Below, in pieces: positions 237 through 25,244 of a stretch of 34,808 bases of DNA. Within the stretch, counting starts at the first letter, position 1. Each line of letters starts with the position of its first letter. Source of the stretch: a virus (taxonomy: Duplodnaviria > Caudoviricetes); IMG/VR virus record IMGVR_UViG_3300017783_000097, positions 1-34,808 of that record. The stretch is one strand, 5' to 3'. The notes below the pieces were generated by a model that worked only from the letters and a program-made list of their open reading frames with translations, was not told the origin of the DNA and did not search any database. The translations under genes and the position numbers were made by a program.

Positions 237-1160
237 TTAACTTCCAGGACCATCAGCAAATATAGGCTTAACATAGACATAAGGTGAACTCTCACCATAA
301 AAAGTTGAATCTAATACACCTTCAAAATACCATTTACCTGTTGTGCCCCTTTCTACTCCATTATCTGCTGCGAATGAGGAATCTTGAGCATCTAATATTT
401 GCCAATCACCTGATAATCCCGTAGGGGCTATTGATGGGTTATCAAAAGAATATACTGCCATAGAACAAGTAACATCCGTACCCGATTCAAATGAAGCTGT
501 ATAATTAAAAACTACACTAAAATAAGTTGTGTCATCATAATCAAAACTACCAATACCTGAGGGATTGTTATCAATAGTTCTAAAATTGAAGTAAAAAGAT
601 AGATCTAAACTTCTATCAGAAACACTGGGTGTAAATTTAGAACCTGCTGACCAATCGTCATTATTTGCTTCCCCCGCACTACCTGAGAATTCGTACCATA
701 ATTGGTTATTTCCAAAAGCATCTACACCACTTGAAGCAGTAATTGATGCAGTTTGATTTCCTCCTGACAAAAGCGCACTCCCCTGATCCCAATTTGTAGC
801 TAAAGGAGCTACTGTAAGACTAGAAGGTGTACCAATAGCAGGTGTATACGTTCCAGTTCCAGCTTTTGAATTTTTTGTTATAGAATTAAAACCCTCTTGA
901 GCATCATATTCAAAATTTACATTAGCTTCTTCTAGGCTATAATATAATATTTTATTTTTACCACAACTTTTACCATAAAATTCAGAATAAGCATGAGGTG
1001 CTACTTGATTAACTGGAGTAGGAGTTGCATTTTCATATAATTTAACCATTGATCCTGCTGCTGGGGTTGATGTAGGACCAGAAAGAAAAGCTACTCCTGA
1101 TTCATGACACTCTGCTAGTATCATTGAAGCGCTTAATGGTCCTGAACTTGGTAAAGCCAT
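237..1160 (-). CDS. Putative tail-fibre tip adhesin / fibre-associated protein
   Basis: 307 aa, translationally coupled (TAATG) to the S74-chaperone fibre gene. The N-terminal [10 protein letters not shown]...SEFYGKS module is typical of proteins that follow phage fibres; the C-terminal part is acidic, aromatic-rich and likely beta-rich. Confidence 0.55.
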   Translation of the reverse strand: MALPSSGPLSASMILAECHESGVAFLSGPTSTPAAGSMVKLYENATPTPVNQVAPHAYSEFYGKSCGKNKILYYSLEEANVNFEYDAQEGFNSITKNSKAGTGTYTPAIGTPSSLTVAPLATNWDQGSALLSGGNQTASITASSGVDAFGNNQLWYEFSGSAGEANNDDWSAGSKFTPSVSDRSLDLSFYFNFRTIDNNPSGIGSFDYDDTTYFSVVFNYTASFESGTDVTCSMAVYSFDNPSIAPTGLSGDWQILDAQDSSFAADNGVERGTTGKWYFEGVLDSTFYGESSPYVYVKPIFADGPGS

Positions 1161-1462
1161 TATAATCTAGATTTAAGTTCGTCAATTTGATTTTGTTGTT
1201 CCTTAATTGCTTCAATTAGTAAAGGTATAATTTTTTCATAATTAACTGCTTTATACCCACTATTTCTTGTAGTAACAGCTTCTGGTAAAATACTTTCAAT
1301 TTCTTGGGCTATTACACCTACATCTTTACCTGTATTACCATGTATTGTTTTTCTTTCTTCTTCATTTAATTCTTTCCAATCAAATGTGTTTCCTGTTACA
1401 CCAATTACTTTACATAAAGCATTATCAATTGGTTGAATGTTACATTTTAATCTTCTATCAGA
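1160..1462 (-). other. Peptidase S74 intramolecular chaperone domain (autocleavage expected at S-D of FSTS/DRRLK)
   Basis: SDxRLKxNI and GVIAQE motifs plus a terminal coiled coil. Confidence 0.9.
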
Positions 1463-4400
1463 TGTTGAAAAAGCTACGATATCATTAGTTGCATCAATTC
1501 TACCTACTGTTGCATTTATAGCGTCTTGAGATCCTACTGTTAATGAACCTGTTACAACAGTATTATTCATGTAAGTAACTAATTGACAAACAGCACCAGA
1601 ATCACTTGCAGTAAGGTAAGAACCTATTAAAAATATATCATTACTTACTCCACCAGCAATAGCAGTTAAATCTATACAATTATGTCTTCCACCTAAAATA
1701 CCAGCATGGCTATCAAACATACTAATATAGTTTTTAAATCCTCCCCCTATAACACTTCTTGTTCCTGATGCAGTATTATACATTCCACCTAATATAGAGG
1801 AAAATCCTGAGTCTACACAATTACCACATCCCCCTCCTATTACACTTGCAGGTCCAGTATAGTAACCACCTATGGTATTTCCAATACCACCACCTATAAA
1901 TCCTAGACAATCATTAAGTGTATTATTAAAACCTCCTGCAATTGTAGAACGGTTTGGTTGAGTTGTACCATAATAACTACTTACTGAATTTATTGAATTT
2001 CCTTCTCCAGCAATAAAGTTAGCACAATGATTTGAAGATGTGTTGCTAACACCAAATACTGCTGAAAAACTACCACTTATTGTGTTTGAAGATCCTCCTA
2101 CTACGTTAAATGTTGCCATTTTAGAAGTAACTGTTGATCCAGATATTATATTATTACCCCCACCTATAATAGATGATCCTTTACCATTCCATATGGTATT
2201 ACAACAACCACCTCCTATAAAACTATAATTACTTAAAGAAGATGTATTACACATCCCACCTACAATTGAAGTTTTTTTACTCCCGATACAGTTTCTACAT
2301 CCACCACCTATAAAATTATTTTGACTATTTAATCCGTATATTCCAGCAATACGGTTAAATTTACCACCTCCAATAACATCTGCTCCTTCATAACCCGCTG
2401 TTATATTCTTAAAACCTCCTCCAATAAAACCGTAACAAGATGAATTGGAATTACATCTACCACCAACAATATTTGCATAACTACTACCAGCATAATTATT
2501 ACCACCACCTCCTATAAAAGTTGTTGAAGAATAAGCACTAACTTCATTTTGCTTACCTCCTACAATAACACTTCTACCAGCTGCGTATCCATTAATTAAA
2601 TTTCTACAACCCCCTCCTATGAAGGCCCAACATTCGCATATATTATTTTCTTGGCCACCTACTATGGATGAAAATTTTCCATTTTGGTAATAGCTGTTTC
2701 TACTATTATATCCTATCTGATTAAGACAACCACCCCCAATAAATTTATGTGATATACTATTTCCATAACCATCACTACCTCCTCTAAAACTATTTCGAGT
2801 ACCTCCTACAATTGATGAAAAAGTAGCTGATGCCGTATTTTTAAAGCCTCCTACTATTGATGTAAAATTACCTGATGCAGTATTTGAGAAACCACCTACA
2901 ATTACGGTATTAGATGCTCTTAATACGTTTTTACATCCTGATCCTATAAAATTAAAGTTTCCTGATGCCGTGTTTAATTGTCCTGATCCTATAAAGTTAC
3001 TACTTCCTGAATTTTTAGTGCCTAAACTAAACTGACAAATTTTGTTTCTACAACCGCCTGCTATAACATTAAAACTGAAAGTAGCGTTTTGGTATGATGT
3101 ATTATTTTGTATTGTATTTAAACTACCTCCTAAAATTGATGAATTCGAATCGACTTGGTAACCACTGTAGAAAGAATTAATTGTATTACAAACACCACCT
3201 ACCATTGTATGTCCACTACCCCTACTAGTTATACAGTTTTTACGACCACCAACTACAACATTATAATTACTATTGAGATAATTATAATTATTCATACCAC
3301 CACCCATAAAAGCAGTGCCTCCTTTATTTATATTATTAAATCCACCAACTATTACTGAGTTCCCATAGTAACTTTGATGTTTATTTAGTCTACCCCCAAC
3401 TATTAAAGATGCATTATTACCATAACTTGATATTTCATTTTTACATCCTGTAAAGATACCACCATAATAGGCCTGAGATATTTTATTACAAAACCCAGAG
3501 CCAATTATACTAAAACCAGCATAATAACCTGAGCCCCCATATATATTATTTTGTTTTCCACCTCCAATGAATGTTTTATCACCAGAAGATGTATTTGAAA
3601 TTCCTCCTACAATTGAACTTTCACCACCTGAGTTATAATTACTTTTACCACCTCCTATAAAGCTACATGGTGCTGAACCTGTGTTTTTAGTACCACCTCC
3701 TATAAAACTACAATTTCCTGAAGCTGTATTTAAAGTACCTCCACCTATACTTGAAAAGTTACCATTAGATTTATTAGACCCACTAACTGGTTGTATTCCT
3801 GATGTAAATGAACTTGCATTAAAATATTCATAAGGACCATCTGGGCGACTATTACCCGGTGGGCCTTGTTCACCTGATGTACCTGATGTGCCACTTGTTC
3901 CTGATGTGCCACTTGTTCCTGAAGTGCCACTTGTTCCTGATGTGCCACTTGTTCCTGAAGTACCATTATTTCCGGAAAGAATAAATCCACAAAGATCACC
4001 ATCAGTTAAAACAGCTCCACTACTTTCTGCAGCCGAAGTTGTTGCGCTATAAACTCTTGAATTTGTACCAGTAGTACCATTACTAGTAATATTTAAAACA
4101 ATAAATTTAGTGGGGTCAGAAACTTTATAAATACCTAGTTTTAAATTAGTAGTACCAATTGAAGCTAATAAATTATCTATATCTACAGAATCTGAATTAA
4201 ATTTACTTATATTTAAAAATGTGATATTAGAAGTTGAACTTGTACCTGAACCCAATTGAAATTCTCCTGAAGTCTGAGTACCTGGTGCTGATGTATTATA
4301 TCCATCAAATTCTGATTTAAATAAAAATCCTGTAGGTCCAGTTGGACCTACTGTACCAGGACCAGATGTTCCACTTGTACCTGATGTTCCCAATCCTGAT

Positions 4401-7400
4401 GTTCCTGATGAGCCACTTGTGCCTGAGCCACTTGTACCTGATGAGCCACTTGTACCACTTGAACCTGATGTGCCACTTGATCCAGATGTTCCCGAACCAC
4501 TTGTGCCCGAAGAACCACTAGTACCGCTTGATCCAGATGTACCTGAAGAGCCACTAGTACCACTTGATCCAGATGTTCCTGATCCACTTGTTCCAGATGA
4601 ACCTGATGTTCCACTAGATCCACTAGTACCTGAACCACTTGTTCCAGATGAACCTGATGTTCCGCTTGAGCCACTTGTTCCTGAAGAACCAGACGTACCG
4701 CTTCCTGATGTTCCTGAACTACCGCTTGTTCCACTTGATCCAGATGTACCTGAAGAGCCGCTTGTTCCTGACCCACTTGTTCCAGATGAACCAGATGTAC
4801 CACTTGAGCCGCTTGTTCCTGAAGAACCTGAAGTTCCTGATCCTGATGTTCCACTAGAACCACTAGTTCCGCTTGAACCTGATGTTCCTGATGAACCTGA
4901 AGTTCCTGATCCTGATGTTCCAGAAGAACCACTTGTACCAGATGATCCAGATGTACCACTTCCTGATGTACCACTTGAACCGCTTGTACCAGATGATCCC
5001 GAAGTTCCACTTGAACCACTTGTGCCACTTCCTGACGTTCCAGATGAGCCTGATGTGCCACTAGAGCCACTAGTTCCGCTTGAACCGGATGTTCCTGACC
5101 CACTTGTACCAGATGAACCTGAAGTGCCACTTCCTGAAGTACCACTTGAACCACTTGTACCTGAGCCACTTGTACCTGAAGAACCACTAGTACCACTTGA
5201 ACCAGATGTACCACTTGAGCCACTAGTTCCTGCTTCACCACTTGTTCCACTTGTTCCTGATGTTATTGTTTTCTTTTCAACAGTATTATTACTTGATAAA
5301 ATTAATACATCATTTGAGGTTCCTGTATCAACATCAGAAATATTAAGATGGTTTACAAAAGTTGTGTCTATTTGTGTTGTAGTAATATTTGACCCAAGAA
5401 TAAAAGTATTGGAATGTTTAAGACAGTTAAATCCTCCACCTAAAATTGCGGCCTTACTAACCGAAAAGTCATCTAAAATAGTATTTTGATAACCACCTAA
5501 AATAGTAACAGTACTAAGAGTATTGTTACTTGCTGTTATACTATTTCCATACCCACCAATAATAGAACTAAAAGATATATTACAAGCATTTGATGCAGAC
5601 ATATGGTTATTTTGTCCACCTCCGATAAAGCTACATCCAACCTGACCTTCATGTACAGTCATTTTATTCGAAACACCACCGGCAATAACACTAAATCCAC
5701 TATCTGAGCCACTAATTATATTTAGTCCCCCACCACCAATGTAACTATAATTAGCACTATCAATAAAATTACTTTCACCCCCTCCTATTGCTGAGCAATT
5801 TCCTCCAGAAGTATTATTTGTTCCTCCCCCAATATTTGACATACAACCCGAAGCTACATTTGAACCACTTACAGGTTGAATACCTGTATCTTCATCACCA
5901 ACTACATTGTATTCATAAGGACCCTCAGGTCTATTATCACCACTTGTACCTGATGTTCCAGATGTACCAAATCCGGATGTTCCACTAGAACCAGATGTTC
6001 CTGCTTCGCCACTTGTTCCTGAAGTACCACTTCCTGAAGTTCCCGAGCTACCACTTGTACCACTTGAGCCTGATGTACCTGATCCAGAAGTTCCTGATGA
6101 ACCGCTTGTACCTGCTTCACCACTTGTTCCTGATGTACCACTAGAACCTGAAGTTCCTGTTTCACCACTTGTGCCACTTGATCCTGATGTACCCGAAGAC
6201 CCACTTGTTCCTGATCCTGAAGTGCCACTTGAACCACTTGTACCTGCTTCGCCCGAAGTACCAGATGATCCACTAGTTCCAGATGATCCTGATGTTCCTG
6301 CTTCGCCACTTGTTCCTGAAGAGCCTGAAGTTCCATTTCCTGATGTACCACTTGAGCCTGAAGTTCCTGCTTCGCCACTTGTTCCAGAAGAACCGGATGT
6401 ACCAGATGTACCACTTGTACCACTTCCAGATGTTCCAGAAGAGCCACTAGTACCACTAGAACCAGATGTACCAGATCCTGATGTTCCAGATGAACCGCTT
6501 GTACCTGCTTCGCCACTTGTACCACTAGAACCTGAAGTGCCATTTCCTGAAGTACCAGATGATCCACTTGTTCCTGAAGTTCCATTCCCAGATGTTCCAC
6601 TTGAACCTGATGTTCCAGAAGAACCGCTTGTTCCTGCTTCTCCGCTTGTACCTGAAGAGCCACTTGTACCACTAGAACCTGAAGTTCCGTTCCCAGATGT
6701 TCCACTAGAACCCGAAGTTCCTGCTTCACCACTTGTTCCACTTGATCCTGATGTACCTGAAGAGCCACTTGTACCTGATGTACCATTTCCTGAAGTTCCT
6801 GAAGAACCTGATGTACCCTCTTCACCTGAAGTTCCGCTTGAGCCTGATGTACCACTTGTACCTGCTTCGCCACTTGTTCCTGAAGAGCCACTTGTACCAG
6901 ATGATCCAGATGTTCCATTTCCTGAAGTACCAGATGAGCCACTTGTACCTGCTTCTCCACTTGTACCAGATGTCCCACTTGAACCTGATGTTCCTGCTTC
7001 ACCTGATGTTCCTGATGAACCACTTGTACCTGCTTCACCCGAAGTTCCACTTGAGCCTGATGTTCCACTTGTACCTGATCCACTTGTTCCAGATGTTCCA
7101 TTTCCAGATGTACCTGAAGAACCGCTTGTTCCTGCTTCTCCGCTTGTACCTGATGTACCACTTAAACCTGATGTTCCTGCTTCACCTGATGTTCCTGATG
7201 TTCCTGATGAACCACTTGTACCTGCTTCACCCGATGTTCCTGAAGAGCCACTTGTACCAGATGATCCAGATGTACCATCTCCACTTGTACCAGATGAACC
7301 ACTTGTTCCTGCTTCACCTGAAGTTCCTGATGAACCAGAAGTTCCTGCTTCACCACTTGTACCTGAGGTACCAGATGAGCCACTTGTACCTGCTTCGCCA

Positions 7401-8716
7401 CTTGTACCTGAAGAACCGCTTGTTCCTGAAGATCCAGATGTACCATCTCCTGATGTACCAGAACTTCCTGATGTACCTAAACCACTAGTACCACTAGAAC
7501 CTGATGTTCCTGCTTCACCTGATGTTCCTGATGAACCACTTGTACCTGCTTCACCACTTGTACCTGAAGAGCCGCTTGTTCCTGAAGATCCAGATGTACC
7601 ATTTCCTGAAGTACCAGATGAGCCACTTGTGCCATTTCCTGAAGTTCCTGATGAACCAGAAGTTCCTGCTTCACCTGAAGTTCCAGATGATCCCGAAGTT
7701 CCTGCTTCACCACTTGTACCACTAGAACCTGATGTTCCACTTCCTGATGTTCCTGAAGAGCCACTTGTACCAGCTTCTCCGGATGTTCCACTTGAACCTG
7801 ATGTACCAGCTTCACCACTTGTACCTGAAGAGCCGCTTGTTCCTCCAGCACCACTTGTGCCCACTATATTTACTTTTACTACATCATCTATTGATGCATC
7901 AAGAGTTACTTCTACATCACCTGTAAAATTTATACCTCTAGTATTTCTTTTTATTAAGACATCATCTTCATATATATCTGAAACTGTTAGGTCATCAAAA
8001 AATTCTTGAACTTCAATTTGATAAGCTGCAAATTGTGAAGTTTGTGATAGATTAAGACCTGATGCATTATTTGAATATATAGGTGCTAATGATTCTGTTG
8101 TAGATAAAGATACAATAGCCATTTTTTGACTTGTACCTAAAAATAAAGATGAATCCCAATCATTCTCGTTGCCTTTTTCACCCCAAGTAATAAGATAAGA
8201 AGCTTCATTAGCAGAATTTTTTACATAAAAAGTATCAGTAATGTCATACTTATGAAATACACCTACTTGTTCTGTGCCTCCTATAGCTTGTGCTCCTAAA
8301 ATGGCATATGAACCACTTGGAGATCCTGCTATATAATAACTATCATTACTACCTGTTATATTTCTAACTCTAATATTTCCATTAGGTGCTAATAATGAAC
8401 CTGATTCTAAAAAATAAGTATTTTCTGCAACCCACCATTGAGTAAACTGACTTGAACCATCTTGTAATGCATTTTGGTCTACTGTAATTTCCGCACTAGA
8501 TGGATCAAAAGCTGTAATAGTAGCATAATCTGTAAGCTCCCCAGAGCTTTTAAGTCGTTGCCCTACTTTCATAAGATTCCATGGGACTGGGTCACCAGAT
8601 GTTGTTACTATATTAGTAACTTTGTTATCTCCAGCAGTATAATCTCCCCTTAGATTAGTATACCTTTCAGAAGGTGAAACTGTAAACTGTCCATAAAATA
8701 ATTGTTTTTTGCTCAT
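1160..8716 (-). CDS. Giant tail fibre: GTS/GSS collagen-like blocks, IGGGxxN beta-roll heads, C-terminal peptidase S74 intramolecular chaperone
   Basis: 2518 aa. The C-terminus SDRRLKCNI...FDWK...[17 protein letters not shown]...[18 protein letters not shown] matches S74 chaperones. It has dozens of (F/S)(I/V)xGGxxN repeats and three G-X-Y blocks. Confidence 0.9.
3854..3964 (-). repeat. Short (GTS)n block containing a near-perfect 18-bp tandem repeat (cctgatgtgccacttgtt x4, 3882..3953)
   Basis: Read directly from the sequence; encodes GTSGTS...GEQGPPG. Confidence 0.9.
4328..5257 (-). repeat. Collagen-like GTS/GSS repeat block 2 of the giant fibre (~310 aa)
   Basis: Units GTSGSSGTS and GSGTS, almost no GEA; ends [12 protein letters not shown]. 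Confidence 0.95.
5939..7861 (-). repeat. Collagen-like GTS/GSS/GEA repeat block 1 of the giant fibre (~641 aa)
   Basis: Units [12 protein letters not shown] with GNG/GSG/GDG/GLG interruptions; degenerate 9-nt periodic DNA. Confidence 0.95.
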
Positions 8717-8765
8717 TTTAAATTTTGGGAATTAAATTTTTGCAACATTTTAATTTTTTAATTTT

Positions 8766-11450: not shown

Positions 11451-11467
11451 TTTACCTTATTATTTAT

Positions 11468-11476
11468 TATAAATAT
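11468..11476 (-). promoter_or_regulatory. Putative late promoter ATATTTATA
   Basis: Same motif found in six intergenic gaps; here 17 nt upstream of the ATG at 11450. Confidence 0.65.
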
Positions 11477-11479
11477 AAA

Positions 11480-13641: not shown

Positions 13642-13645
13642 ATTT

Positions 13646-14317
13646 TTATGATGTTAAAGATTGTCTTGTTATTGTTACTGGAATAGTTAATCTAGCACCA
13701 CTATCTAATCCTGTTACTGTTAATGTTGTTCTTAATTGAGAATTTCCACCAAATAAAGTATTAACAGTTGTAGCTGTAATACTAATTTGAGTTCCAATTA
13801 CTGTTTTTGAAACACTTGTACCAATTGTTTGAGTAGCATTAACATTTGCACTAGTTGCTGCTTCTGATTGGATACCTTGTCCTGTAAATGTACTAAATAC
13901 TCTTACATCTCCAATAGTAGCACTATATCCACTTGTTTCAAAGGTTTGTTCATTACCTAAATAATTTAATGTTTGAGGTGTTATTGCTAACTGTGCACCT
14001 TGTTTCATTGTTATAGCTGCATAACCAAGATCTAATACAGGTAGTTTAGCTGTACCTCTAGGTAATGTAGTTAATTTATATTTCATTATTTGTAGCTCAC
14101 TTGGAAATGCTTCTAATAGAGGCATATTATCAATTGCTTCACCATAATAGGCCGAGCCCGAAGGGTGATTTGGATTATAAAGTGTATAATCAATTTCATC
14201 ATCTCCTAAAGCAAATTGTGTTATTTGAAAAGAACCATCATTACGAGATAATAATTCTCTTCCTTTTGTAGTTAATATAGCATCAACTGTAATTACTGCG
14301 TTGTTTAAATATCCCAT
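13646..14317 (-). CDS. Baseplate/tail-collar structural protein
   Basis: 223 aa. The N-terminal AILTTKGRELL...FQITQFALGDD resembles the start of tail-collar fibre domains (ITTAGAAKL...ITTMAVGDG). Confidence 0.55.
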   Translation of the reverse strand: MGYLNNAVITVDAILTTKGRELLSRNDGSFQITQFALGDDEIDYTLYNPNHPSGSAYYGEAIDNMPLLEAFPSELQIMKYKLTTLPRGTAKLPVLDLGYAAITMKQGAQLAITPQTLNYLGNEQTFETSGYSATIGDVRVFSTFTGQGIQSEAATSANVNATQTIGTSVSKTVIGTQISITATTVNTLFGGNSQLRTTLTVTGLDSGARLTIPVTITRQSLTS

Positions 14318-14330
14318 TATGTTATTTTTA

Positions 14331-14358
14331 TATAAATATTATTATATGTCATAAATAT
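14331..14358 (-). promoter_or_regulatory. Tandem putative late promoters (ATATTTATG at 14358..14350 and ATATTTATA at 14339..14331)
   Basis: Two copies of the conserved motif in the 50-bp gap upstream of the ATG at 14317. Confidence 0.65.
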
Positions 14359-14367
14359 GTGTTCTTA

Positions 14368-17300
14368 TTAAGATTCTATAATTCCTTTAGAAATTAAATC
14401 ATTTACTATTACAGAAGCGCTTTGTATTAAGTATTCTGTAGGGAAGTCAGGATACAATATACCAGGGGTTTCTTGTAATTCCAAACTACTTAATGAGGCT
14501 GTATAATTCCCATCAGCGTCTACTCCATTTAACATAGCACTACTACTTATTGCAAATGAACCATCCGTTCCTGCATTAATAAATGAACCTGTATTTTTTA
14601 TTACTGTAGATATACTTGCACTCGCTAAATTTTCATAAGGGAATGGAGTATCTAAGTAAAGTGAATTAGGATTAACTACTGGTCTTCTTACTAAGAAGAA
14701 ATTTTTATTAATCGATTTAGGTACTGGTCCACTTAATTTAATTTTTAGTCTTGGATTTTTAGTTCCTGTATCTTGTTCTATATTTTCAGCAGGTGCAAAT
14801 ACTTCGTCAATTGTATAAGTATAATTTTCATTATTAGCAAATCTAATTTCATCCCCTTCAAATAATTGTATTGTATTATCAATTCTATCAAATGCTGTAG
14901 TTGCCGGTTCTACACCTGCTGGGAAATAATCCGATTGTCCCGGGAAATATTCTAAATCTCCTTGACGGAAAGTTGTACCATATGCTTCATTTAAATTTGA
15001 AGAAGACATTACTAATATACTTTGATCTAAAATATTTGTATTACCTTTTCCTGCCGAACCTGTATATACCCAAAACGGTGCTTTAGCTGTGTTAGCTTCA
15101 CCCATTAAATAATCATTAGCACCTTGACCTTGCATATTTACTGATGTATAAGCTCCTGCGTATCCAAGTGGGAAAAATAAACCTTGTCTATATCCACCTC
15201 TTGCGTTTTTAAACTCTCCTATAATTCTCCAGTTAATAGCATCTCCACCTTGAATAGTATATTTACCACTATTTGCTGTAATAATCCATTCTAATGCTTG
15301 AACACCAGCACCTCCCTTAGGTCCTCTTTCTCTCATTAATCCAAGATCAAATAATGTTTCATACATTTCCCAATCAACAGTACATCTAATACCACCTGTA
15401 GGTACTGGTACTCTAGTGTATCTCCATCTTTTAAATCTCCATCTTCTAAGGAAACTTCTAAGTGTTTGTTTTCTTCTTACTTTATAATAATTAACAATAT
15501 TAGTCATTTCAAACCACCCATATTCAAGTATACTTCCTATATTAGTTACTCTTCCATCATCAGTATAAACTTTACATTCTATATCTTCTAGATTAAATGG
15601 TTTTTCTTCTTTACCTACCCAATTAGTACCAACAAGTGATCCACTACTGTACATATGTAATTCAAATTTTAATTCATCTCTTACTCTACGTGTTTCACTA
15701 ACAAATGATGTTACAAATGATGTTTGTACTGTTACAATTTGTGAAGATGGTAAATCTTCTCCAGTTGTAATCGTTGGGACTATACCTGTAGTTGGAGCTG
15801 AGGGATACCTATTATTTGCTGGGTATAAGGCTGATATAAATGCATTTTCTGGGTATTGGATATTTAAGGATTGACCCTTAACATTAACATTCCAAGGATT
15901 AAGTACATTTGCATTATTTGTACCTGGCCCACCTATACCTGCATCATTTTGAGCTGATCCAGTTAAAAATTCTGAAGGGTCTAAATAATAATCAACTGAT
16001 TGTACCGGATTGCCAGTATCAATACTAGCTGAACCTTGTGCTGAGAATCTTGCAAATAAAGCATCATTTTCATCCCCATTATCATATTGTGATATATAAC
16101 CAGAACCAGATAATGGTAAAACATTAGCATAATTATTTGCTGAGTTTTGTGAATATAATATAGGTGTCACATACTGCATTATACGTTCTATAGATGCTGG
16201 GGCTCCTAATTCTCTATATTTTCCTTTTCCTGATTTAGCAGCTATTTTACCTAATGTAGTATTTGGAAATACTGCTTGAAAAGTATCTATGCTTAATGGG
16301 TCTAATGTAGGAGGTAAAGCATTACCTTGTTCATCAATTAAATAATTTAAATTAATTCTTGTTAAACCATTAATATTGGGATAAGGATCATCTAAATCAT
16401 TAAAATATCCAAAAAATGCATCTCTTAATTCTATTGTTGGATTTTTACCATATGTTCCTATATCTCCTATATTCCAAACATTTAATTCTTGACTTGTTGA
16501 TTTTGAACCATCATATCTAGGTTTAATAGAACGAGCTATAGTATAATTTGATTCTGGGACTGTTGCTCTTAAAGCACTACCACTAATAATTTGTCTTAAA
16601 TTTACAGGGGCTGCAAGATTTCCTCCGCTAATAGGAGTATAAAAATCTCCGTAGAAGAAATATGAAGCAGTATTTGTAGCCTGTAGATTATAATCTATAT
16701 CCATTAGATATGGATTTGCTCTTTGGTTAACAAAGTTATTTAGTAAAGGTTGACAATCTAATGCCAAGTTGAAAGGTACAACATTATTTCCAAAGAAAGT
16801 AGATATTAATTCGGCTGTTGGATCTGGTACTCTAAAATTTCCAAATTCAACTTCCAATGATCCAAGTGACATTTTTGTAACATCATTAAATGGAGCCCAT
16901 TCATTTGAACTACTAGGAACTATACTCATTGAGTATTCTGTTATAGTTAACCCTATACCAAAACTTTTACTAACTGATAATCCCATTCTAATACTATCTA
17001 ATGAAGTAAAATTACCAAAAGTTGAACCTGTAAAAGATGTTCTACCCGTTTGATCTGATGACGAAAGCATAATTCTATTTTCATTTGCAGCACCACCTGG
17101 GCCAAGAAAATTAACAGTACCCCCAGAATCTAAAGAAGTATTTTGAATGTAAATACTTCCAGTAAGTTCTTCATCTCCAACTATTTGATTAATTGATGAT
17201 GTTATTTTTACAAATGAAGATGTCATACTAGGATTAGTAATAATGGGAGCAACTGGATCATTAAAATATATTTCAGTTTCACCTACATTGCTTGTGCCAA

Positions 17301-20300
17301 AAGAATAGGGATTTTCATAATTACTCATAGAATATTCTACAAAAAACATTTCATCTGGTTGGGTTTGTGTACTACTAGTTGTTGCAGGATCCGAAGCATC
17401 ATATTCTACATTATTTACTGGAATTTCAAAATATCCTTTCATTACACCTCCACCAGTCCCAAAAGGTACTGTTTGTTCGTCCCCTGATGGTATTCGAACT
17501 ATGTATGGTTCTTGTGCACCAGGGCCAAAACTTTGAGATAATGTTACTTTAAATTTTTCAGTATTTCCAATTATTCTTGCGGGGTTTGATTCTGCAGAAG
17601 ATCCTGTTACTTTTAAAAATGCTTGTAAATCAAAATTAGGAAATAAACCAACAGTAGCAAAATTATTAGTGGGATATAAAGTAAAAAGACCACTATCAAC
17701 CCCCGTATTAGCCCCGCCTACATAATAATCAGAAATTGAATCTGTTGTAGTATAGTAATATGAAAAATTTCCATATGGTATTGTTGGTCTACTGCTGCCA
17801 ACTATTACAGTAGCATCTATATATACACTCATATCGTTAACTCGTACATTTGGAATGGCTGTAGTGTTTGGGATAGTTGGTGAATAAGCTATTACTTGCC
17901 AAAAAGAGTCTGCTACCACATTTGGTGAAGTACTTGCTTGAATGTTTGAATTTGTTAAAGGTCCAATTGTTAAATCTCCCTGTGCTGAAGGAAAACCAGC
18001 TGAAATTAAATCTGCTTGTGATATAGTTAATACATTACCTACAACATACCCTGCACCTATAAATTGTACAGCTAAAGATGAAACATTTGTTCCATTTGAT
18101 CCAATATTTACAGTTCCTCCATTTCCTACTTGTTGAGAACCTCCGGTAACTGATGTAAAATATACTCCATTAGCACTACCTGGTCCTATTGTTAAAGTTG
18201 ATGCATTAGATAAAGATAAAAGGGTTGGAGAACCTGCTCCTTGTATTAAAGTGTCTCCATTTGTACCAAAAGGATACAAACCTAAATTGACTGGATTATT
18301 GCTTAAGGACACATTTCCACTTTGGGAATCAGTACCACCTACTTTCCATACTCCTGTATCATTAGGATCTTCAACCCATAATAAATTATCGATATTGGAT
18401 GCATTTTGATTGAAATCTGGAATTTGTACGGGAATATTATCTGATGTTGAACTTGTTAATATTAGACCAACTGGGCCACTATTTTGGTTAGTGTTTGGGT
18501 AATAAACCGCCCCATTCTCTTTGTTGCCTGGAACATATGCCATTGAAAAAGTAACATCTGTTCCAGTAGGAGCATTTACAGAAAATCCAACTGCCACATT
18601 ACAATCAGCAACATCATCTACAGAAAATCCAACACCACTTCCATTAGCAGCTATTTCATTTAAAACAAATTGCCCATTAATAGTATAAGTTCCTACTTCA
18701 TTTACATCTATACCTCCATTTCCACCTAAACCTGATAAATCATACCAAGTTCCAGTTACATTATCAGTACCTACTGTATAAGCAGAAGATGAAATAGGGA
18801 ATGGGACTCCAGCTGAATTACCTTGCATTGTACTCCAAGCTGTAAATTCTAATGTTGGGGTATTCCATTGAAATGAAGATGTCATTATATTAGTCGTAGT
18901 AGCATGACCAGTACCTGCTGTGGTTATAGGATTATCAATAGCACCACCTTGATTAGTATTAGTAAAGTTTCTATAAAAAACGGGATTTAAACCTAATGTA
19001 CTATACCCCTGTGCAGAAGATGGGCGATATACCCCACTTGTTATATTTGGGTTAGTTGCCTCATCTGCTGAACCTGTATAGAAACTAATAGTTTGGTCCT
19101 CTACATTATTATTATTATTAGAAGAAACATGATAAATATTTTCTGTTACTATTGTGCTAGATTGACCTAAATTTGATGCACTATATGCAACTGAACATGA
19201 AAAATATAGGGGTATATTAGGAGTTCTACCTAATGTATAAGAACCAGAAGCATAATTTAAACCAAGATTTGATATAATATTTTGATAATTTATACTAGGT
19301 GAACCAGGGTTAAAGAAACCTAAGGTATCATTACTAGTATTATAATTAGCTGTATTTCCATTTTGGTCTCCCCAAAACCAAAATCTTTGGTTTTGAGTTT
19401 GTTGATCTGTTGCTAAATAACTACCTTGTGATTCGTTATCATTTCCATTATACGATGCAGTAAATGAACCCGATGCTATTAAACTAAAGTTTTCAGAACC
19501 CCCATCTTCGGACCAATTAAAATCTGGGTTTCCATTTGATTGGTTTATGTTTATAATAGTACTTTTAGCACCAACTGTTACACCATCTATATAATATTCT
19601 TTAGTACCTTCTTGAAATATTATTTCTAATTTTTCTGCTCCCACTAAATATTCACCTACTTCGTTATTATTAACATCAAATCTTGCTAATTTTACCCATT
19701 GGACTATAGATTGTCCATTAATTACATTACTTGCTATCCAAGCATCTCCTGGGACTGGGTTATTTCTATTATCTAAAAAAGCATCATTTGATACTGTTCC
19801 TTGAACTAATGAATTAAAAGAAAAGAAAAGTGGGTTATAAACAATAGGAGTATCTGATACATTTAAATAGGGTTCACAACCAGGATTTAAATCTTGATCT
19901 GATACTTGAATTCTTGAACCACTAAATATACCATCATAAAATTCTGATTGGTTATCTTTTATCCATCTTCCAGTTCCTGGGAATTTGCCTTCTCCACCAC
20001 TTGCACTTATATAAAATGAATTACTTTGGTTAAAGTTAAGACTATTAATTACTGAGTAATCTAATGAATCTGCCCAACTTTGTGTTAAGAAAAATCTATT
20101 ATCTGGTCCTAAACCTTTTGATCCAGATGGATATGTTTTTAAACCATTAAATCTTTCAAATGAACCACCTGGTCCACCTGAAAACTTATATATAGCTGAT
20201 CCTTCAGTAGAATATTGTGGGAAATCCGCTGATCCCGAACTATAATCTTTTGGTAAATTAACAACTAAACCTTCATATTCATGTCTTGATGATGTTACTA

Positions 20301-23300
20301 AAGCTGGTCTTTGTCTATTTCTTTCTAGTAAATGTTGTTTTACTACTACTCCAGAAGCTAAACTTGTTCTAGCAGGAGTAAAATCTTCTATCATTTTAAA
20401 TAATGAATTATCAAAGAATTTAATTAATCTAACAAAATCAACTACATCATACCCTCTAATATACTTTTCAAAATAAGCGTCTCTTAAAATATTTAAATCT
20501 GGATAGCTTCTTGATGATGAAAAGTTTTGTCTCGGATCACCAATATAATCTCCTAAGTTAAAATATCCTATTTGGGCATTAATATCATCATTTATTTGAT
20601 TTGAGGGTGAAAATGCTACTTCTAAATAATTAACATTTGGAGTGTAACTTTGACTTACAAATGAATGTTGTTGAATTGACTCCATAGGTGATATAACATC
20701 ACTTGTTGTACTAGAAATTGTAGCTTCAGATGAGGTTGGTGTTTGAAAACCATAAGGTGCTTCGGCTAAAATTAAATTTTCAGCTTGTATTTTATTTGTA
20801 ATCCTATTTTTTATACCTGCTGGTACTTGATCTTGGAATATATCTTCTACATTAGTTACAAACCTTGAAGCACTAATAAAATAACTACTATCATTAGTAA
20901 ATGATTGAGTAATTTGTACTGCAGAACCTGTTACTCTAGGATGAATAGATATTCTACTACCTGTATCTAATTGTGTCCCTAAATCTGCTCTAAAAAATAA
21001 CTCATTAGGTGTACTGTTTATTGTATTACCTTCATCTGAATAAGGATTTACAGTATAATCAAAAAATTTACTTTCACTTAGTTCAATATTCCAATATCTT
21101 AATTCTTGGAAAGACCCTGAAAAAGGTTGGTATGTACCACCTGCCCCTGAAGGAGTAAAGTCTGACTGAGTATTTAAAAATGCTTTTGTTGCATCTGTCC
21201 AATAAGATACATCAAAACCAGTAACTTGATTAGAACCAGAAAATCCTATTTCTCCATTAATTTCATTTGCAGCAAATAAAGTAGCAGAAGGAGTATCTTC
21301 GTTTACATTTACTTGAACGGACCACCAATCTTTATTAAAGAAGGGAAGATAAATACTAGCAGAGGTTCCAACATCAGTTGTGTCTGGGATGTATTTTAAG
21401 GTACCATAAGTGTCGTAAGGGCTAGCTATGGATCCTGAATATGAACCTTTTACAAAACCAGAACCTGTATATTCTAAAACAATAGCTGAATCCCCATCTT
21501 GTCCAGCTATAAATAAAGATTGAGAATATCTAATATTAGAACTTGCTATATTATTTACAGCAGGTGGTATTCCTGCTGATTTAAATCTAAATTGAACTGA
21601 ACTTGGTGAAGTATTTCCAAAATTATTATTAGCATTAAAAGATGAACTAACAAAATTAGTAGCATTTTCTCCTGTATCAAAAGCATAGTTAAATACATTT
21701 TGTTTTAAATCATAATCTTGAGATTCATTTCTATCTTTACCTCCAAATTCACTAATTCGTAAAATTGTATCAGGTATTCCATATGATGTAATTAATGCTC
21801 TAATACCAGCTATCGTACCTTTAGTTTTAAGTAAATATGGTATATTATGGTATATTCGTTTATATACTTGCTTTTGAACATTATTTAATGGCACTATATC
21901 ATTTGAAGCAGATATTTCAGTATCTACGTACTCAAACCCAGAAGGTGTGTTAACTTGACCATTAATTGATCCCGTCATGTATGGAAAAGGAAATGCACTT
22001 CCTGATGGTGTTAATCCTAAAAATGCTGTAAATAAATCATTTGTATTAAAATTATTAGCATATAGTTTAACCCCAAAATCTCTAATGGCATCTGCTACTA
22101 AATCTTTAGCAATACCATATTCTAAACGATTATCAGCATCAAATTTATTTGAAATATCTTTTGTATATAACCAAACATTATCATAATATTGACCCACCAT
22201 ATCAACAAATAATTCGTATCTTTCATTAGCAGGGTCATCTCTTAAATATTCAGGTATAGACCAATATAACCAATTATTGTTATTTTGATCAAAATTAGAA
22301 GCAGATAATGCTTGACCTCCATAATAAGGGTTGCTTTGATCAATACTACCCACCCATGTTGAAGCAATTATACTTCCTGTAGGGTATAATTGAAAAGGGG
22401 GTGTGGTATTTTGTTTTGGGTAAGAATATTGGGAGCCACTATTAAAATACAAAAATGATTCATACCCATCAAAATTTTTAATGATATTATCTATTTGCCC
22501 TGTTAATCTTGCTTTACTTGAACTATAAGCTATAGTATTTACTGTATTTCCTGTTATTTTATTTAACTGTGAAGAAAGTTGAAAACTAGCAGATTCAATT
22601 AAACCAACTTTATATACAAAATTTTCTAATCTAGTTTTAGCAGAACTAAAATGTATAAAGTTAGAATAATTTTCGTAATTAACATTAATATTAATTTCTT
22701 TTTGATTTAAAAGATTTTGGATTTGGTTAATTGAACTAGTTACATTTGATTGGAGTAAAGTATTAAAGGAAAATGATTCACCCCCAGTTGATGTTTCTTG
22801 TGTTATGTTAAGATTATAATTAGGACCTGCTATATAAGTAAAATCATCTTCTATAATAGGTTCAAATGGAAAATTTAATTCATAAGCTTGAGGGGAAGAT
22901 AATTCTTCAACTACCCATAATTCATCTTTTATACTAAAAGTAGAAGGTAAAGGTTCATATAATTTAATTAAAATTGTAGGATCTATTCCTTCTTCGGTTT
23001 CTAGCTTTATATTATTAGCTATTATTGATTGATTTAAACCAAAATTTAAATAAAAATCAACAAAATAATCTGCGTCTTCTCTATATTGAATAAATGAATT
23101 TGAGGAAGAAATTATTAATTCATTGGGAATAATATTACTATCTAGTCTTATTTCAGTTCTATCAGATGATATGTCAGAAATAAAATATTTTTCTGATATA
23201 TTAGAAGATAATCTTTTTCTATAAAAATTGTATAAAATATTATAAACTCCTAGATCATAACCAGAGTTAATTAGATCATTTTCGGGGTTTAATAATACAT

Positions 23301-23517
23301 CCCCTTCTCTTACATCATAATCTAATAATGGAATAGTAGAACCTGGGTATATTAAATTTTGGTTTTGGTCATAAACATAATATTCGATATAATCTGTATT
23401 TACATTAAATACAGTATCTAATTGGGATTGTACAATTAGTTCTGTATCCTTATCTGAATATGCTTGATATTCAAATGTATCTGGATTTAGTTGATTAATT
23501 GTTATTTCTTGAGCCAT
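14368..23517 (-). CDS. Very large baseplate wedge protein (T4 gp7 / P2 gpI-like core with extensive accessory domains)
   Basis: 3049 aa. IPEYLRDD...FVDMVGQYYD and YKRIYHNIPYLLKTKGTIAGIRALITSYG (KGT motif of gpI/gp7 wedge proteins, ~21770..21870); located in the baseplate cluster. Confidence 0.7.
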   Translation of the reverse strand: MAQEITINQLNPDTFEYQAYSDKDTELIVQSQLDTVFNVNTDYIEYYVYDQNQNLIYPGSTIPLLDYDVREGDVLLNPENDLINSGYDLGVYNILYNFYRKRLSSNISEKYFISDISSDRTEIRLDSNIIPNELIISSSNSFIQYREDADYFVDFYLNFGLNQSIIANNIKLETEEGIDPTILIKLYEPLPSTFSIKDELWVVEELSSPQAYELNFPFEPIIEDDFTYIAGPNYNLNITQETSTGGESFSFNTLLQSNVTSSINQIQNLLNQKEININVNYENYSNFIHFSSAKTRLENFVYKVGLIESASFQLSSQLNKITGNTVNTIAYSSSKARLTGQIDNIIKNFDGYESFLYFNSGSQYSYPKQNTTPPFQLYPTGSIIASTWVGSIDQSNPYYGGQALSASNFDQNNNNWLYWSIPEYLRDDPANERYELFVDMVGQYYDNVWLYTKDISNKFDADNRLEYGIAKDLVADAIRDFGVKLYANNFNTNDLFTAFLGLTPSGSAFPFPYMTGSINGQVNTPSGFEYVDTEISASNDIVPLNNVQKQVYKRIYHNIPYLLKTKGTIAGIRALITSYGIPDTILRISEFGGKDRNESQDYDLKQNVFNYAFDTGENATNFVSSSFNANNNFGNTSPSSVQFRFKSAGIPPAVNNIASSNIRYSQSLFIAGQDGDSAIVLEYTGSGFVKGSYSGSIASPYDTYGTLKYIPDTTDVGTSASIYLPFFNKDWWSVQVNVNEDTPSATLFAANEINGEIGFSGSNQVTGFDVSYWTDATKAFLNTQSDFTPSGAGGTYQPFSGSFQELRYWNIELSESKFFDYTVNPYSDEGNTINSTPNELFFRADLGTQLDTGSRISIHPRVTGSAVQITQSFTNDSSYFISASRFVTNVEDIFQDQVPAGIKNRITNKIQAENLILAEAPYGFQTPTSSEATISSTTSDVISPMESIQQHSFVSQSYTPNVNYLEVAFSPSNQINDDINAQIGYFNLGDYIGDPRQNFSSSRSYPDLNILRDAYFEKYIRGYDVVDFVRLIKFFDNSLFKMIEDFTPARTSLASGVVVKQHLLERNRQRPALVTSSRHEYEGLVVNLPKDYSSGSADFPQYSTEGSAIYKFSGGPGGSFERFNGLKTYPSGSKGLGPDNRFFLTQSWADSLDYSVINSLNFNQSNSFYISASGGEGKFPGTGRWIKDNQSEFYDGIFSGSRIQVSDQDLNPGCEPYLNVSDTPIVYNPLFFSFNSLVQGTVSNDAFLDNRNNPVPGDAWIASNVINGQSIVQWVKLARFDVNNNEVGEYLVGAEKLEIIFQEGTKEYYIDGVTVGAKSTIININQSNGNPDFNWSEDGGSENFSLIASGSFTASYNGNDNESQGSYLATDQQTQNQRFWFWGDQNGNTANYNTSNDTLGFFNPGSPSINYQNIISNLGLNYASGSYTLGRTPNIPLYFSCSVAYSASNLGQSSTIVTENIYHVSSNNNNNVEDQTISFYTGSADEATNPNITSGVYRPSSAQGYSTLGLNPVFYRNFTNTNQGGAIDNPITTAGTGHATTTNIMTSSFQWNTPTLEFTAWSTMQGNSAGVPFPISSSAYTVGTDNVTGTWYDLSGLGGNGGIDVNEVGTYTINGQFVLNEIAANGSGVGFSVDDVADCNVAVGFSVNAPTGTDVTFSMAYVPGNKENGAVYYPNTNQNSGPVGLILTSSTSDNIPVQIPDFNQNASNIDNLLWVEDPNDTGVWKVGGTDSQSGNVSLSNNPVNLGLYPFGTNGDTLIQGAGSPTLLSLSNASTLTIGPGSANGVYFTSVTGGSQQVGNGGTVNIGSNGTNVSSLAVQFIGAGYVVGNVLTISQADLISAGFPSAQGDLTIGPLTNSNIQASTSPNVVADSFWQVIAYSPTIPNTTAIPNVRVNDMSVYIDATVIVGSSRPTIPYGNFSYYYTTTDSISDYYVGGANTGVDSGLFTLYPTNNFATVGLFPNFDLQAFLKVTGSSAESNPARIIGNTEKFKVTLSQSFGPGAQEPYIVRIPSGDEQTVPFGTGGGVMKGYFEIPVNNVEYDASDPATTSSTQTQPDEMFFVEYSMSNYENPYSFGTSNVGETEIYFNDPVAPIITNPSMTSSFVKITSSINQIVGDEELTGSIYIQNTSLDSGGTVNFLGPGGAANENRIMLSSSDQTGRTSFTGSTFGNFTSLDSIRMGLSVSKSFGIGLTITEYSMSIVPSSSNEWAPFNDVTKMSLGSLEVEFGNFRVPDPTAELISTFFGNNVVPFNLALDCQPLLNNFVNQRANPYLMDIDYNLQATNTASYFFYGDFYTPISGGNLAAPVNLRQIISGSALRATVPESNYTIARSIKPRYDGSKSTSQELNVWNIGDIGTYGKNPTIELRDAFFGYFNDLDDPYPNINGLTRINLNYLIDEQGNALPPTLDPLSIDTFQAVFPNTTLGKIAAKSGKGKYRELGAPASIERIMQYVTPILYSQNSANNYANVLPLSGSGYISQYDNGDENDALFARFSAQGSASIDTGNPVQSVDYYLDPSEFLTGSAQNDAGIGGPGTNNANVLNPWNVNVKGQSLNIQYPENAFISALYPANNRYPSAPTTGIVPTITTGEDLPSSQIVTVQTSFVTSFVSETRRVRDELKFELHMYSSGSLVGTNWVGKEEKPFNLEDIECKVYTDDGRVTNIGSILEYGWFEMTNIVNYYKVRRKQTLRSFLRRWRFKRWRYTRVPVPTGGIRCTVDWEMYETLFDLGLMRERGPKGGAGVQALEWIITANSGKYTIQGGDAINWRIIGEFKNARGGYRQGLFFPLGYAGAYTSVNMQGQGANDYLMGEANTAKAPFWVYTGSAGKGNTNILDQSILVMSSSNLNEAYGTTFRQGDLEYFPGQSDYFPAGVEPATTAFDRIDNTIQLFEGDEIRFANNENYTYTIDEVFAPAENIEQDTGTKNPRLKIKLSGPVPKSINKNFFLVRRPVVNPNSLYLDTPFPYENLASASISTVIKNTGSFINAGTDGSFAISSSAMLNGVDADGNYTASLSSLELQETPGILYPDFPTEYLIQSASVIVNDLISKGIIES

Positions 23518-23526
23518 ATTTTATGT

Positions 23527-24069
23527 TTAATAACCACCACCTCCACCACTAGAAACTGCTGCAGAAGAAACAGATGTTGCACTACCCCCACTACTTATTC
23601 CTGTTGTATTTTTAGAGGTTGATGTATTTTCAGATAATGTTGTATTAGTTTGTATTATATTTTCGTTTGCTGCCTGAATTTCTTTTTCAAAAACCAATAA
23701 TGCCTCATTAGTAGCTGGGTCTTCTGTTTTTGATGCTTGTACTCTAGCGTTTTCCATCTGTGCTGTTAATAAATCACTTCTTAATTGAGCTATTTCAGCT
23801 TGTAATGCTTGTATTTCATCATTAATTTCATCAAAATTAATATATTCACCACTAGTTCGTACTAGATATTGATGAGAATTTGTTTCACCCAAAGCGGGTA
23901 TATCATAAAAAAGAGAATTATATAATCCAAAAAATTCTTCAACACTAGGTTGAAGTTGTTGATCTTCAGTAATAGAAATAGCACCTAATTCACTAAAACT
24001 AGTATTTATTGTTTTAATGTATTCAGCTTTATTATATATTTCTTTTACTAAATCTAATCTTTCTGCCAT
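23527..24069 (-). CDS. Hypothetical structural protein with coiled coil and Ser/Gly-rich tail
   Basis: 180 aa. EIQALQAEIAQLRSDLL heptads; C-terminal SSGGGGGY; coupled by TAATG. Confidence 0.6.
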   Translation of the reverse strand: MAERLDLVKEIYNKAEYIKTINTSFSELGAISITEDQQLQPSVEEFFGLYNSLFYDIPALGETNSHQYLVRTSGEYINFDEINDEIQALQAEIAQLRSDLLTAQMENARVQASKTEDPATNEALLVFEKEIQAANENIIQTNTTLSENTSTSKNTTGISSGGSATSVSSAAVSSGGGGGY

Positions 24070-25244
24070 TATCTATTTATAACTTTAAAATAATAATTAT
24101 CATCTTTTACTATTGTACTACCATTAATAGTTGTTTGAATTAATATTTTATAATATCTTTCAGGTTGTAATCCATTCATATAGATATCAAAATAATTACT
24201 TTGGTTGTCACAACTTATTCTTGTAAATTCAGGATCAAAATCTATTAATGTTTCATTTGTATCTAGATCTTTAACAGAATAAAGTGAATCAGCAGGTAAA
24301 TAATGGTTTTGGGTATCTATAGAAGATGTTAAAAATGTTCTTACTGGGAATTCTGGTCTAACATTAAGTCTAAATCTATTTATACTTTCACTATAAAATA
24401 TCCCAGGATTACTATCTAGGGCAACAAACAAATCAGTTGTTTTAATTTCAGGTAACCCACCGGGATCAAATATTTGGTCATTCCATTTAATTTCTAAAGT
24501 TGGAGGATATATAGTATTTGTATCAACAGAATAAAACTGCATAATAGGTTGTACAGCGTCTGCAGTATTAAATTCAATTGGGTTTTCCCATTTTACTATA
24601 AATCCATTATTTTGAATAGGTGTATAGGGATAACTGCTTTTAGAACTTGAATACCACACCTTAATAATATCTGTAACTGGGGCATTTAGATCTTTTTGTG
24701 ATCTTAACCTAAATGATTGGGTTACTTCAATATTTGTATTATAAGGGTCATCTGAACCCGTGTACCATGTACCACCTCCTTGATTAATATTTCCTGACCA
24801 AGAAGCTGTTACATAAGGTCCCCAACCTGCTAAATCCCAATATGCCGCACCTGTTCCTGTTGATCCAGAAAAAGTTCTTGCTTTCCAACTTACACCATTT
24901 AAAGTAGCTGGTGAGTCTAAGTATGTTCCTGTCCCATTATTCCATGAGCCCGATATGGGATATATTTCCAAATTTGTATTAAAGTCTACTCCTTGGGCAT
25001 TTGATATATAACATTTTAAACTACTTGAAAAGTTTTTTAATTCTGATCCTGTTACTTTTGTATTTATAACACTACTAATTTCATCTTGATCAAATTCAAT
25101 TAAATATCTAAATACTTGAGGTAAAGGATTTATATTTACATTTAAATTACCGATTTCAATTATGGGATCTATCCCTGTATTCATATATGGATAAAATGAA
25201 TATATTGTAGCATCTTGTAAAGGAAATAATTTATATACTGCCAT
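24069..25244 (-). CDS. Structural protein with DNRLRE/CBM96-like N-terminal domain
   Basis: 391 aa. QDATIYS..P..NTG....IEI...RYLIEFD and YPISGSWNNGTG...W match that beta-sandwich pattern; baseplate context. Confidence 0.5.
   Translation of the reverse strand: MAVYKLFPLQDATIYSFYPYMNTGIDPIIEIGNLNVNINPLPQVFRYLIEFDQDEISSVINTKVTGSELKNFSSSLKCYISNAQGVDFNTNLEIYPISGSWNNGTGTYLDSPATLNGVSWKARTFSGSTGTGAAYWDLAGWGPYVTASWSGNINQGGGTWYTGSDDPYNTNIEVTQSFRLRSQKDLNAPVTDIIKVWYSSSKSSYPYTPIQNNGFIVKWENPIEFNTADAVQPIMQFYSVDTNTIYPPTLEIKWNDQIFDPGGLPEIKTTDLFVALDSNPGIFYSESINRFRLNVRPEFPVRTFLTSSIDTQNHYLPADSLYSVKDLDTNETLIDFDPEFTRISCDNQSNYFDIYMNGLQPERYYKILIQTTINGSTIVKDDNYYFKVINR

Follow-up and report, generated by a model that had tools for sequence, protein, structure and literature searches.

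This study investigated a serine- and threonine-containing tripeptide, [S/T]-[G/A/S]-S, that recurs in predicted virion proteins of an uncultured marine, T4-like virus of the class Caudoviricetes (IMG/VR record IMGVR_UViG_3300017783_000097). The window analyzed is the whole 34.8-kb viral contig (34,808 nucleotides), and every gene in it is on the minus strand, to which all window coordinates below refer. The genes comprise an HD gene with further small genes, a baseplate block, two collagen-like fibers, and a protein of 307 amino acids (aa). The baseplate block runs in the order gp25, gp6, and then proteins of 391, 180, 3049, 223, 361, and 356 aa. An earlier examination of the letters without database searches (the sequence-only reading) had proposed that the tripeptide is a phage-specific glycosylation signal placed on peripheral virion proteins but not on the core.

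Tripeptide excess in the window proteins

Counts of [ST][GAS]S are given as observed/shuffled mean; in the tagged proteins they exceed chance three- to sevenfold. The 3049-aa protein of the baseplate block (14368..23517) carries 55 dispersed sites with a median spacing of 34 aa (55/14.5, z 10.7). An excess was also found in the 391-aa protein adjoining gp6 (24069..25244; 8/1.1), in the conserved 361-aa protein of the block (12556..13641; 7/2.2), two sites of which are highly conserved, and in the 356-aa protein of the block (11480..12550; 10/1.9), whose sites show high turnover among homologues. No motif was found in the gp6-like baseplate wedge protein (25256..27130; 0/2.1), the gp25-like baseplate protein (27130..27537; 0/0.1), or the Ser-rich 424-aa protein (29615..30889; 0/2.4), the putative spike of the sequence-only reading, as that reading had stated, and the 234-, 257-, and 114-aa genes were likewise free of it. 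The first three therefore served as untagged controls, and their homologues yielded 39/70.2, 0/5.2, and 21/42.0, respectively. The 223-aa protein within the tagged block (13646..14317), for which a viral-cluster look-up gave unnamed clusters alone, has one site and was classed as untagged from its homologues in relatives (2/3.2).

We then compared the counts with shuffles in 10-residue blocks, in 30-residue blocks, or with dipeptides preserved (500 of each). The observed value of the 3049-aa protein was reached by 0 of 500 shuffles under all three schemes, and those of the 391-, 361-, and 356-aa proteins by at most 2, 12, and 1 of 500, respectively. For the 307-aa protein (237..1160; 5/3.0, z 1.2), 44–187 of 500 shuffles reached the observed count, and its tagging was not significant. 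Local composition or dipeptide bias was thus ruled out for four proteins but not for the 307-aa protein. The hand counts of the sequence-only reading (about 55, 10, 7, 8, and 5 in the 3049-, 356-, 361-, 391-, and 307-aa proteins) proved exact, and its view of the first four as enriched was upheld; the inclusion of the 307-aa protein was not.

The residue order also mattered, as the earlier reading had suggested checking: the 3049-aa protein contains TGS 12 times and SGT 0 times. When tripeptides were ranked by enrichment across the five globular proteins, SGS and TGS were the top two (p 5e-10 and 7e-8). The 85 sites comprise 65 distinct 9-mers, and positions 1 and 3 use both TCN and AGY serine codons, which rules out a DNA-level repeat or a codon artifact. 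The signal acts at the protein level.

Distribution of the motif in the family and on the virion

Compared with 50,697 phage records, the 391- and 361-aa proteins matched only Flavobacterium phage immuto, Microcystis phage Mel-JY01, and the uncultured huge phage LR756508; the 361-aa protein additionally matched Rhodothermus phage RM378, which is described as the reference isolate of the Far-T4 phages (PMC4360716). The window shares its gene order with immuto from the HD gene through the baseplate block at 37–47% identity, and the immuto/Far-T4 phages resemble the window phage in both this syntenic, homologous block and the motif excess. However, immuto is far beyond one species apart from the window phage; its central protein has 1265 aa instead of 3049 aa, and it lacks the Ser-collagen fibers present in the window. 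The window contains no capsid gene, and its relatives group with RM378 on four markers (support 79). In the four-marker tree, Mel-JY01 (PP395634), whose recorded host is cyanobacterial, nests among relatives of the Flavobacterium phage.

All 194 loci that carry 600 aa or more of sequence homologous to the four tagged proteins showed an excess of [ST][GA]S (2.2–8.9x, median 5.1x; the loci are related and partly redundant), as did all 94 further loci (minimum 2.7x); the control homologues of gp6 and the 424-aa protein stood at 0.6x and 0.5x. The best homologues of the 3049-aa protein, pooled over seven relatives, gave 109/22.3. After thinning to <80% identity, each family held 7–8 sites per protein spread over 105–116 alignment columns, and 29–39% of the sites occupied columns used by fewer than one tenth of the sequences. 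The predicted turnover of sites among homologues was therefore borne out, with a few near-invariant exceptions.

The three positions are gained and lost together as a unit. The final serine was present in 87% of the rows in which positions 1 and 2 fit and in 22% of those in which they did not, whereas the control triplets gave 75% and 54%; loop misalignment and shared descent could inflate this contrast. Position-wise enrichment in 292 sequences was 5.3x for S and 4.9x for T at position 1; 7.1x for G, 2.5x for Q, 2.4x for A, and 2.1x for S at position 2; and 5.1x for S and 0.9x for T at position 3. As read from these sequences, the refined motif is [ST]-[G>Q,A,S]-S. If the motif is modified, we lean slightly toward the final serine as the modified hydroxyl because position 3 is strict, whereas position 1 takes S or T equally.

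To place the sites on the virion, we pooled up to seven relatives. The major capsid protein, tail sheath, and neck protein showed pooled excesses of 2.8x, 3.0x, and 3.3x, respectively; the portal and the tape measure showed 0.4x each; and the tube, hub, and terminase had no site, the tail tube yielding 0/1.0 in seven relatives. The claim that peripheral proteins are tagged and the core is not thus needs correction, since the capsid, sheath, and neck proteins are tagged in relatives; the pattern is better stated as outer surface versus interior.

The sites within the capsid and sheath proteins were then aligned to T4; these alignments are distant, and the mapping is valid at the domain level only. 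On this level, 26 of 27 capsid sites aligned to T4 gp23 132–245 (the insertion domain, or I-domain, and its linkers; the range was transferred from gp24 residue numbers), and the insertion domain is described as forming surface protrusions (PMC9546572). Similarly, 53 of 58 sheath sites aligned to T4 gp18 88–345, described as the solution-exposed part (PMC3004832). After correction for regional composition, the exposed part and the rest showed 2.3x versus 0.2x in the capsid and 2.7x versus 0.7x in the sheath. These results agree with the expectation that the sites lie in exposed domains. In the confident models of the 391- and 361-aa proteins, the sites fall in coil, at strand ends, and at helix ends.

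A candidate glycosyltransferase pair and the rival explanations

In immuto, gp169–gp181 form a cluster of glycosyltransferases and nucleotide-sugar enzymes, the first two genes of which are termed GT-A (gp181) and GT-B (gp180) here. Eighty loci were examined, and GT-B directly followed GT-A in 74 of the 74 with room downstream. Both match PF00534 and retain an E-x7-E motif (EGWGLxxTE and EG[FY]GRPLxE), and the genes downstream of the pair are variable (GT2 enzymes, aminotransferase, acetyltransferase, epimerase, and methyltransferase). GT-A is split into two adjacent open reading frames (ORFs) in two lineages (PP395634 83441–84932; G010:C1:195206–196714), in which GT-B is whole.

Full-length GT-B was found in eight of eight motif-positive close relatives that are complete or at least 99% complete (immuto, Mel-JY01, G002, G010, G014, G029, G050, and G051), and the prediction that related phages with the enrichment share a glycosyltransferase cluster was thereby supported. 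The motif excess was 2.0–3.2x proteome-wide in six of the eight; in the tagged families it was 5.0x in G050 and 4.0x in G051, the latter on 747 aa alone. Among the 50,697 phage records, GT-B matched immuto and Mel-JY01 only. A search of 26 IMG/VR records left 20 without GT-B; these are 27–83% complete and were not counted as negatives. The motif-positive G015 (83% complete) lacks the pair, and its contig ends approximately 1.4 kb before the position of the pair in G002, which makes it uninformative. A further 4793 GT-B relatives without genomic context were left out of the co-occurrence counts.

The phage LR756508 has GT-A but not GT-B, and its motif excess was 1.36x proteome-wide, with 0 of 651 ORFs significant. 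Its site density in the tagged families was 0.27 per 100 aa, compared with a median of 1.24, and its capsid and sheath proteins, approximately 50% identical to those of the relatives, have no site in the exposed parts. It is sister to the main clade (support 100 for both together and 70 for the main clade alone). A core-gene subtraction, limited to ORFs of at least 70 aa with a BLAST match, revealed 32 immuto genes with matches in five complete motif-positive genomes. Three of the 32 were missing from LR756508, namely GT-B and two GT2 enzymes, one of the latter being a weak and probably generic match. At 305432–312100, LR756508 carries GT-A followed by a cytidylyltransferase, a GT29 sialyltransferase-like gene, and a GT25 gene. 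GDP (55/20) and FDG (66/28) rank among the top tripeptides of this phage and may represent a different signal.

Among solved structures, chlorovirus B736L is the closest to both GT-A (E 5e-12) and GT-B (E 4e-4), and the T4 DNA glucosyltransferases AGT and BGT were absent from their PDB matches up to E 1. The accessible part of a report on immuto gives its DNA as dA, dC, dT, and fdPreQ1 and mentions no sugar-bearing base (10.1101/2023.04.13.536721); this base composition, which could overlook minor bases, speaks to some extent against a role of DNA as acceptor. Two known protein signals were also considered and rejected. The Bacteroidota O-glycosylation sequon is D-[S/T]-[A/I/L/V/M/T], and this motif was not enriched in the 3049-aa protein (9 vs 10.5 expected); the smaller proteins gave 1 vs 1.6, 4 vs 1.9, and 3 vs 1.0. 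N-X-S/T, of the HMW1C/N-glycosyltransferase type, was not enriched either (39 vs 50.1 in the 3049-aa protein; other tagged proteins at or below expectation).

The excess, the residue order, the turnover as a unit, the location, and the co-occurrence with GT-A/GT-B are directly established. Judged from the sequences, [S/T]-[G>Q,A,S]-S is likely a sequon for phage-encoded O-glycosylation. The order asymmetry, turnover, exposed domains, and transferase cluster anticipated by the sequence-only reading all speak for that part of its proposal; its extension to the fiber repeat is probably wrong, the 307-aa protein was not significantly tagged, and its exemption of the core needs restating as one of the interior. 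In the mechanism that we propose, the cytoplasmic GT-A/GT-B pair would attach a sugar to virion subunits at the tripeptide; GT-B would read the sequon or start the glycan, GT-A and the variable downstream genes would extend a lineage-specific glycan, and the resulting sugar coat over the particle may shield or stabilize the virion.

Several findings weigh against this reading. The case for a glycan was built from sequences. The 34.8-kb window contains no glycosyltransferase, neither GT-A or GT-B nor the TibC-like enzyme described below, as the sequence-only reading had said of the modifying enzyme; a 41.8-kb contig with an identical 391-aa protein has none either, and the identity to the nearest relative carrying the pair is 65%. 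Shared descent by itself makes a trait and a gene occur together when both are clade-wide, and the family offers one GT-B-negative lineage (a single loss event); a search for others found only three contigs 94% identical to LR756508. LR756508 itself retains an excess of 2.7–2.8x in the tagged families (7/2.5), together with GT-A and its own glycan genes. The outgroup RM378 combines GT-A with a GT-B that is very divergent (hhalign probability 71) and shows a motif excess of 2.26x, and its sheath and capsid are barely tagged. The acceptor of B736L is described as not proven (PMC9614988). In the models, the sites differ little in secondary structure from the surroundings of other serines. The 361-aa family holds two near-invariant sites (98/107 and 90/107), the second of which persists in LR756508 and RM378, and part of the signal may therefore be structural, given these few sites. 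Outside the family, a nonstructural 50-kb part of pT24 showed 1.56x, with T[GA]S 7 times and S[GA]T once, and a fiber of an unrelated cyanophage (NC_006883 PSSM2_023, L356:3954–5747) has a His/Ser-rich end repeat with 20 [ST][GA]S.

Two observations on RM378 stand beside these points. The very divergent GT-B is the unannotated Rm378p014 (NC_004735 10616–11893), which lies beside the RM378 glycosyltransferase and has a degenerate E-x7-E. RM378 also has an excess of TLS, TVS, and TFS, perhaps a drifted sequon.

The persistence of near-invariant sites in a GT-B-negative lineage, the residual 2.8x of LR756508, and the use of the same tripeptides by repeat fibers of an unrelated cyanophage would also fit a tripeptide that is a structural element (a turn, strand end, or cap) of exposed beta-rich domains, with the glycosyltransferase pair serving another function. 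We consider this explanation unlikely, since the sites occur in coil, strand, and helix and in unrelated folds, move between columns at a steady density, and are missing from orthologous capsid and sheath proteins at approximately 50% identity, and since Thr is tolerated at position 1 but not at position 3. The structural regions (40–50 kb) of outside phages also argue against it (T4, 0.37x; PA5oct, 1.14x; LR756511, 0.99x). P-SSM2 reached 1.63x, driven by a single fiber with a 20-site repeat and without order asymmetry; single repeat fibers can mimic the motif, and the dispersal over many globular proteins that marks the present family was not seen in the five regions and the one whole genome (G034) examined outside it.

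A signal read by a host enzyme, or a nonsugar modification (e.g., phosphate or methyl) with GT-B merely co-descending, is also improbable. The tag-like behavior would suit any enzyme-read signal, the GT-B link depends on one loss, and one publication reports that a phage tail protein is methylated in a host-dependent manner (PMC13445384). Nevertheless, the shared genes missing from the motif-poor LR756508 are all glycosyltransferases, isolates with Flavobacterium, Microcystis, and Rhodothermus as recorded hosts all retain the tag, and the Bacteroidota sequon was not enriched in the 3049-aa protein. The surface location and unit-wise gain and loss would fit equally well if the tripeptide served to dock a small decoration or cement protein, or a folding chaperone, onto many outer virion proteins. 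Such a role is very improbable, since no nonenzyme gene tracked the motif within the limits of the core-gene subtraction, and approximately 50 sites per fiber chain at a 4-residue spacing would be too tight for protein binding. The proposal of the sequence-only reading that a single enzyme recognizes both the collagen repeat and the dispersed tripeptide as the same signal could draw on the 117 and 40 SGS of the two window fibers and on three relatives that carry both traits; we give it almost no credence, because the complete 299-kb myovirus G034 has collagen, no GT-A/GT-B pair, and a dispersed motif of 0.84x, and because a different, TibC-like enzyme tracks the collagen, as described in the following section.

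Collagen-like fibers, known systems, and other genes

Both fibers contain Gly-X-Y collagen of GTS, GSS, and GEA triplets (PF01391). The 2518-aa fiber (1160..8716) comprises proline-free Gly-Thr-Ser/Gly-Ser-Ser collagen, glycine-rich repeat regions, and a C-terminal Peptidase_S74 chaperone, and the 894-aa fiber (8766..11450) is for the most part Gly-Thr-Ser collagen. The SGS counts are junctions of GTS/GSS triplets; the repeats contain more SGT than SGS (130 vs 105 and 91 vs 39), and [ST][GAS]S in the 894-aa fiber is below the shuffles (42/57.9). Ser-collagen also occurs in viruses without GT-B, and the fiber repeat is thus probably not the same motif polymerized, contrary to the sequence-only reading.

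A full-length TibC relative (E 4e-31 to PDB 4RB4, with similarity over TibC residues 61–383) was found in collagen-carrying relatives. It was present in six of six Ser-collagen genomes that are complete or at least 90% complete (G014, Mel-JY01, G029, G034, G037, and G043) and in 11 of 18 collagen contigs of a pattern scan, the seven misses being 17–84% complete. The collagen DNA pattern admits Thr, and G046 and G036 (Gly-Thr-Thr repeats) and G028 (no repeat on translation) were dropped from the count. The enzyme was found in 0 of 12 family genomes without collagen. Conversely, collagen lay near 8 of 46 TibC-like loci (of at least 10 kb), compared with 0/38, 0/61, and 0/58 in three comparison sets. 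Five complete, motif-positive, collagen-free genomes (immuto, G002, G010, G050, and G051) lack the enzyme, which therefore does not explain the dispersed tripeptide. These sequence data suggest a second, TibC-like heptosyltransferase as the likely modifier of the Ser-collagen fibers of the window. We regard it as somewhat more probable than an even chance that an abundant aquatic Far-T4 clade has its own sequon, placed at hundreds of freely moving sites on capsid, sheath, baseplate, and fibers, and a private glycosyltransferase pair and that the window phage adds a TibC-like second system for its proline-free Ser-collagen, which would give it two independently encoded sugar coats. The TibC-like heptosyltransferase of collagen carriers is often fused to a GT4 domain and spans unrelated viruses (in Mel-JY01, 4747–8430). 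The Gly-Thr/Ser-Ser pattern also matched numerous genomes of bacteria, among them Burkholderia, Massilia, Streptomyces, and Acidobacteria; these matches come from a loose pattern and are untranslated.

TibC heptosylates serines of adhesin repeats in the cytoplasm, and the TibC/Aah enzymes (bacterial autotransporter heptosyltransferases, BAHT) are iron-bound dodecamers that use ADP-heptose. The present system resembles them in its full-length TibC relative, which occurs in relatives with a Ser-collagen fiber like that of the window, but differs in its likely acceptor, a collagen-like helix instead of an autotransporter beta-helix. In the accessory Sec system, GtfA/GtfB perform cytoplasmic O-glycosylation of serine-rich surface proteins, and GtfB is noncatalytic. 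GT-A and GT-B are likewise two adjacent genes of the GT-B fold, but both phage enzymes keep E-x7-E, which is degenerate in RM378 only, and their putative acceptors are dispersed tripeptides instead of long alternating-serine repeats.

Virion glycosylation by phage glycosyltransferases has been reported in mycobacteriophages (Freeman et al. 2023, as cited in PMC12619734, PMC12582341, and PMC10877033), and the glycans are described there at the C-termini of capsid and tail tube subunits. The present family shares with those phages a tail, several phage-encoded glycosyltransferases, virion proteins as likely acceptors, and a proposed shield. By contrast, the candidate sites predicted here are internal, many per chain, and defined by a tripeptide, and they occur on the capsid, sheath, neck, baseplate, and fibers but spare the tube (for this motif, not for other acceptor sites). 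In chloroviruses, virus-encoded enzymes also build a virion glycan, and B736L and A546L have the GT-B fold; however, the match to B736L covers the donor-binding half only, and the chlorovirus glycans are described as N-linked at atypical Asn sites (PMC9614988).

In the literature accessible outside subscription journals and supplements, we found no description of this motif, of virion glycosylation in Immutovirus or Far-T4 phages, or of a recognition motif for tailed-phage virion glycosylation, the reports being confined to a few mycobacteriophages and to chain termini. If confirmed, the present system would add a new variant to the known kinds of phage virion glycosylation. A signal of three residues that phage enzymes read in the cytoplasm for O-glycosylation would give glycoengineering a new portable tag; a phage group that is very common in aquatic habitats (an estimated 8000 or so IMG/VR stretches) would be sugar-coated, and outer virion surfaces would become predictable from sequence. 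The group has a cultured member, immuto, which grows on Flavobacterium sp. LMO8.

The label "outer baseplate" for the tagged block is based on gene position beside gp6 and gp25 because fold searches found no T4 counterpart. For the 361-aa model, Foldseek returned nothing at E<=0.001 and the best VIA match had Z 4.3. For the 391-aa model, the sole match in the fold searches was to a carbohydrate-binding module: its predicted beta-sandwich domain (predicted local distance difference test score 93) resembles the chondroitin-binding module 8wab (E 1e-5; template-modeling score 0.66 over the target), and the 391-aa protein may thus be a sugar binder in its own right. A 561-aa protein (27928–29613) with no Pfam or PHROG match is encoded immediately ahead of the baseplate genes; it contains an Arg/Lys-rich stretch and hydrophobic helices, is untagged, and is kept in relatives.

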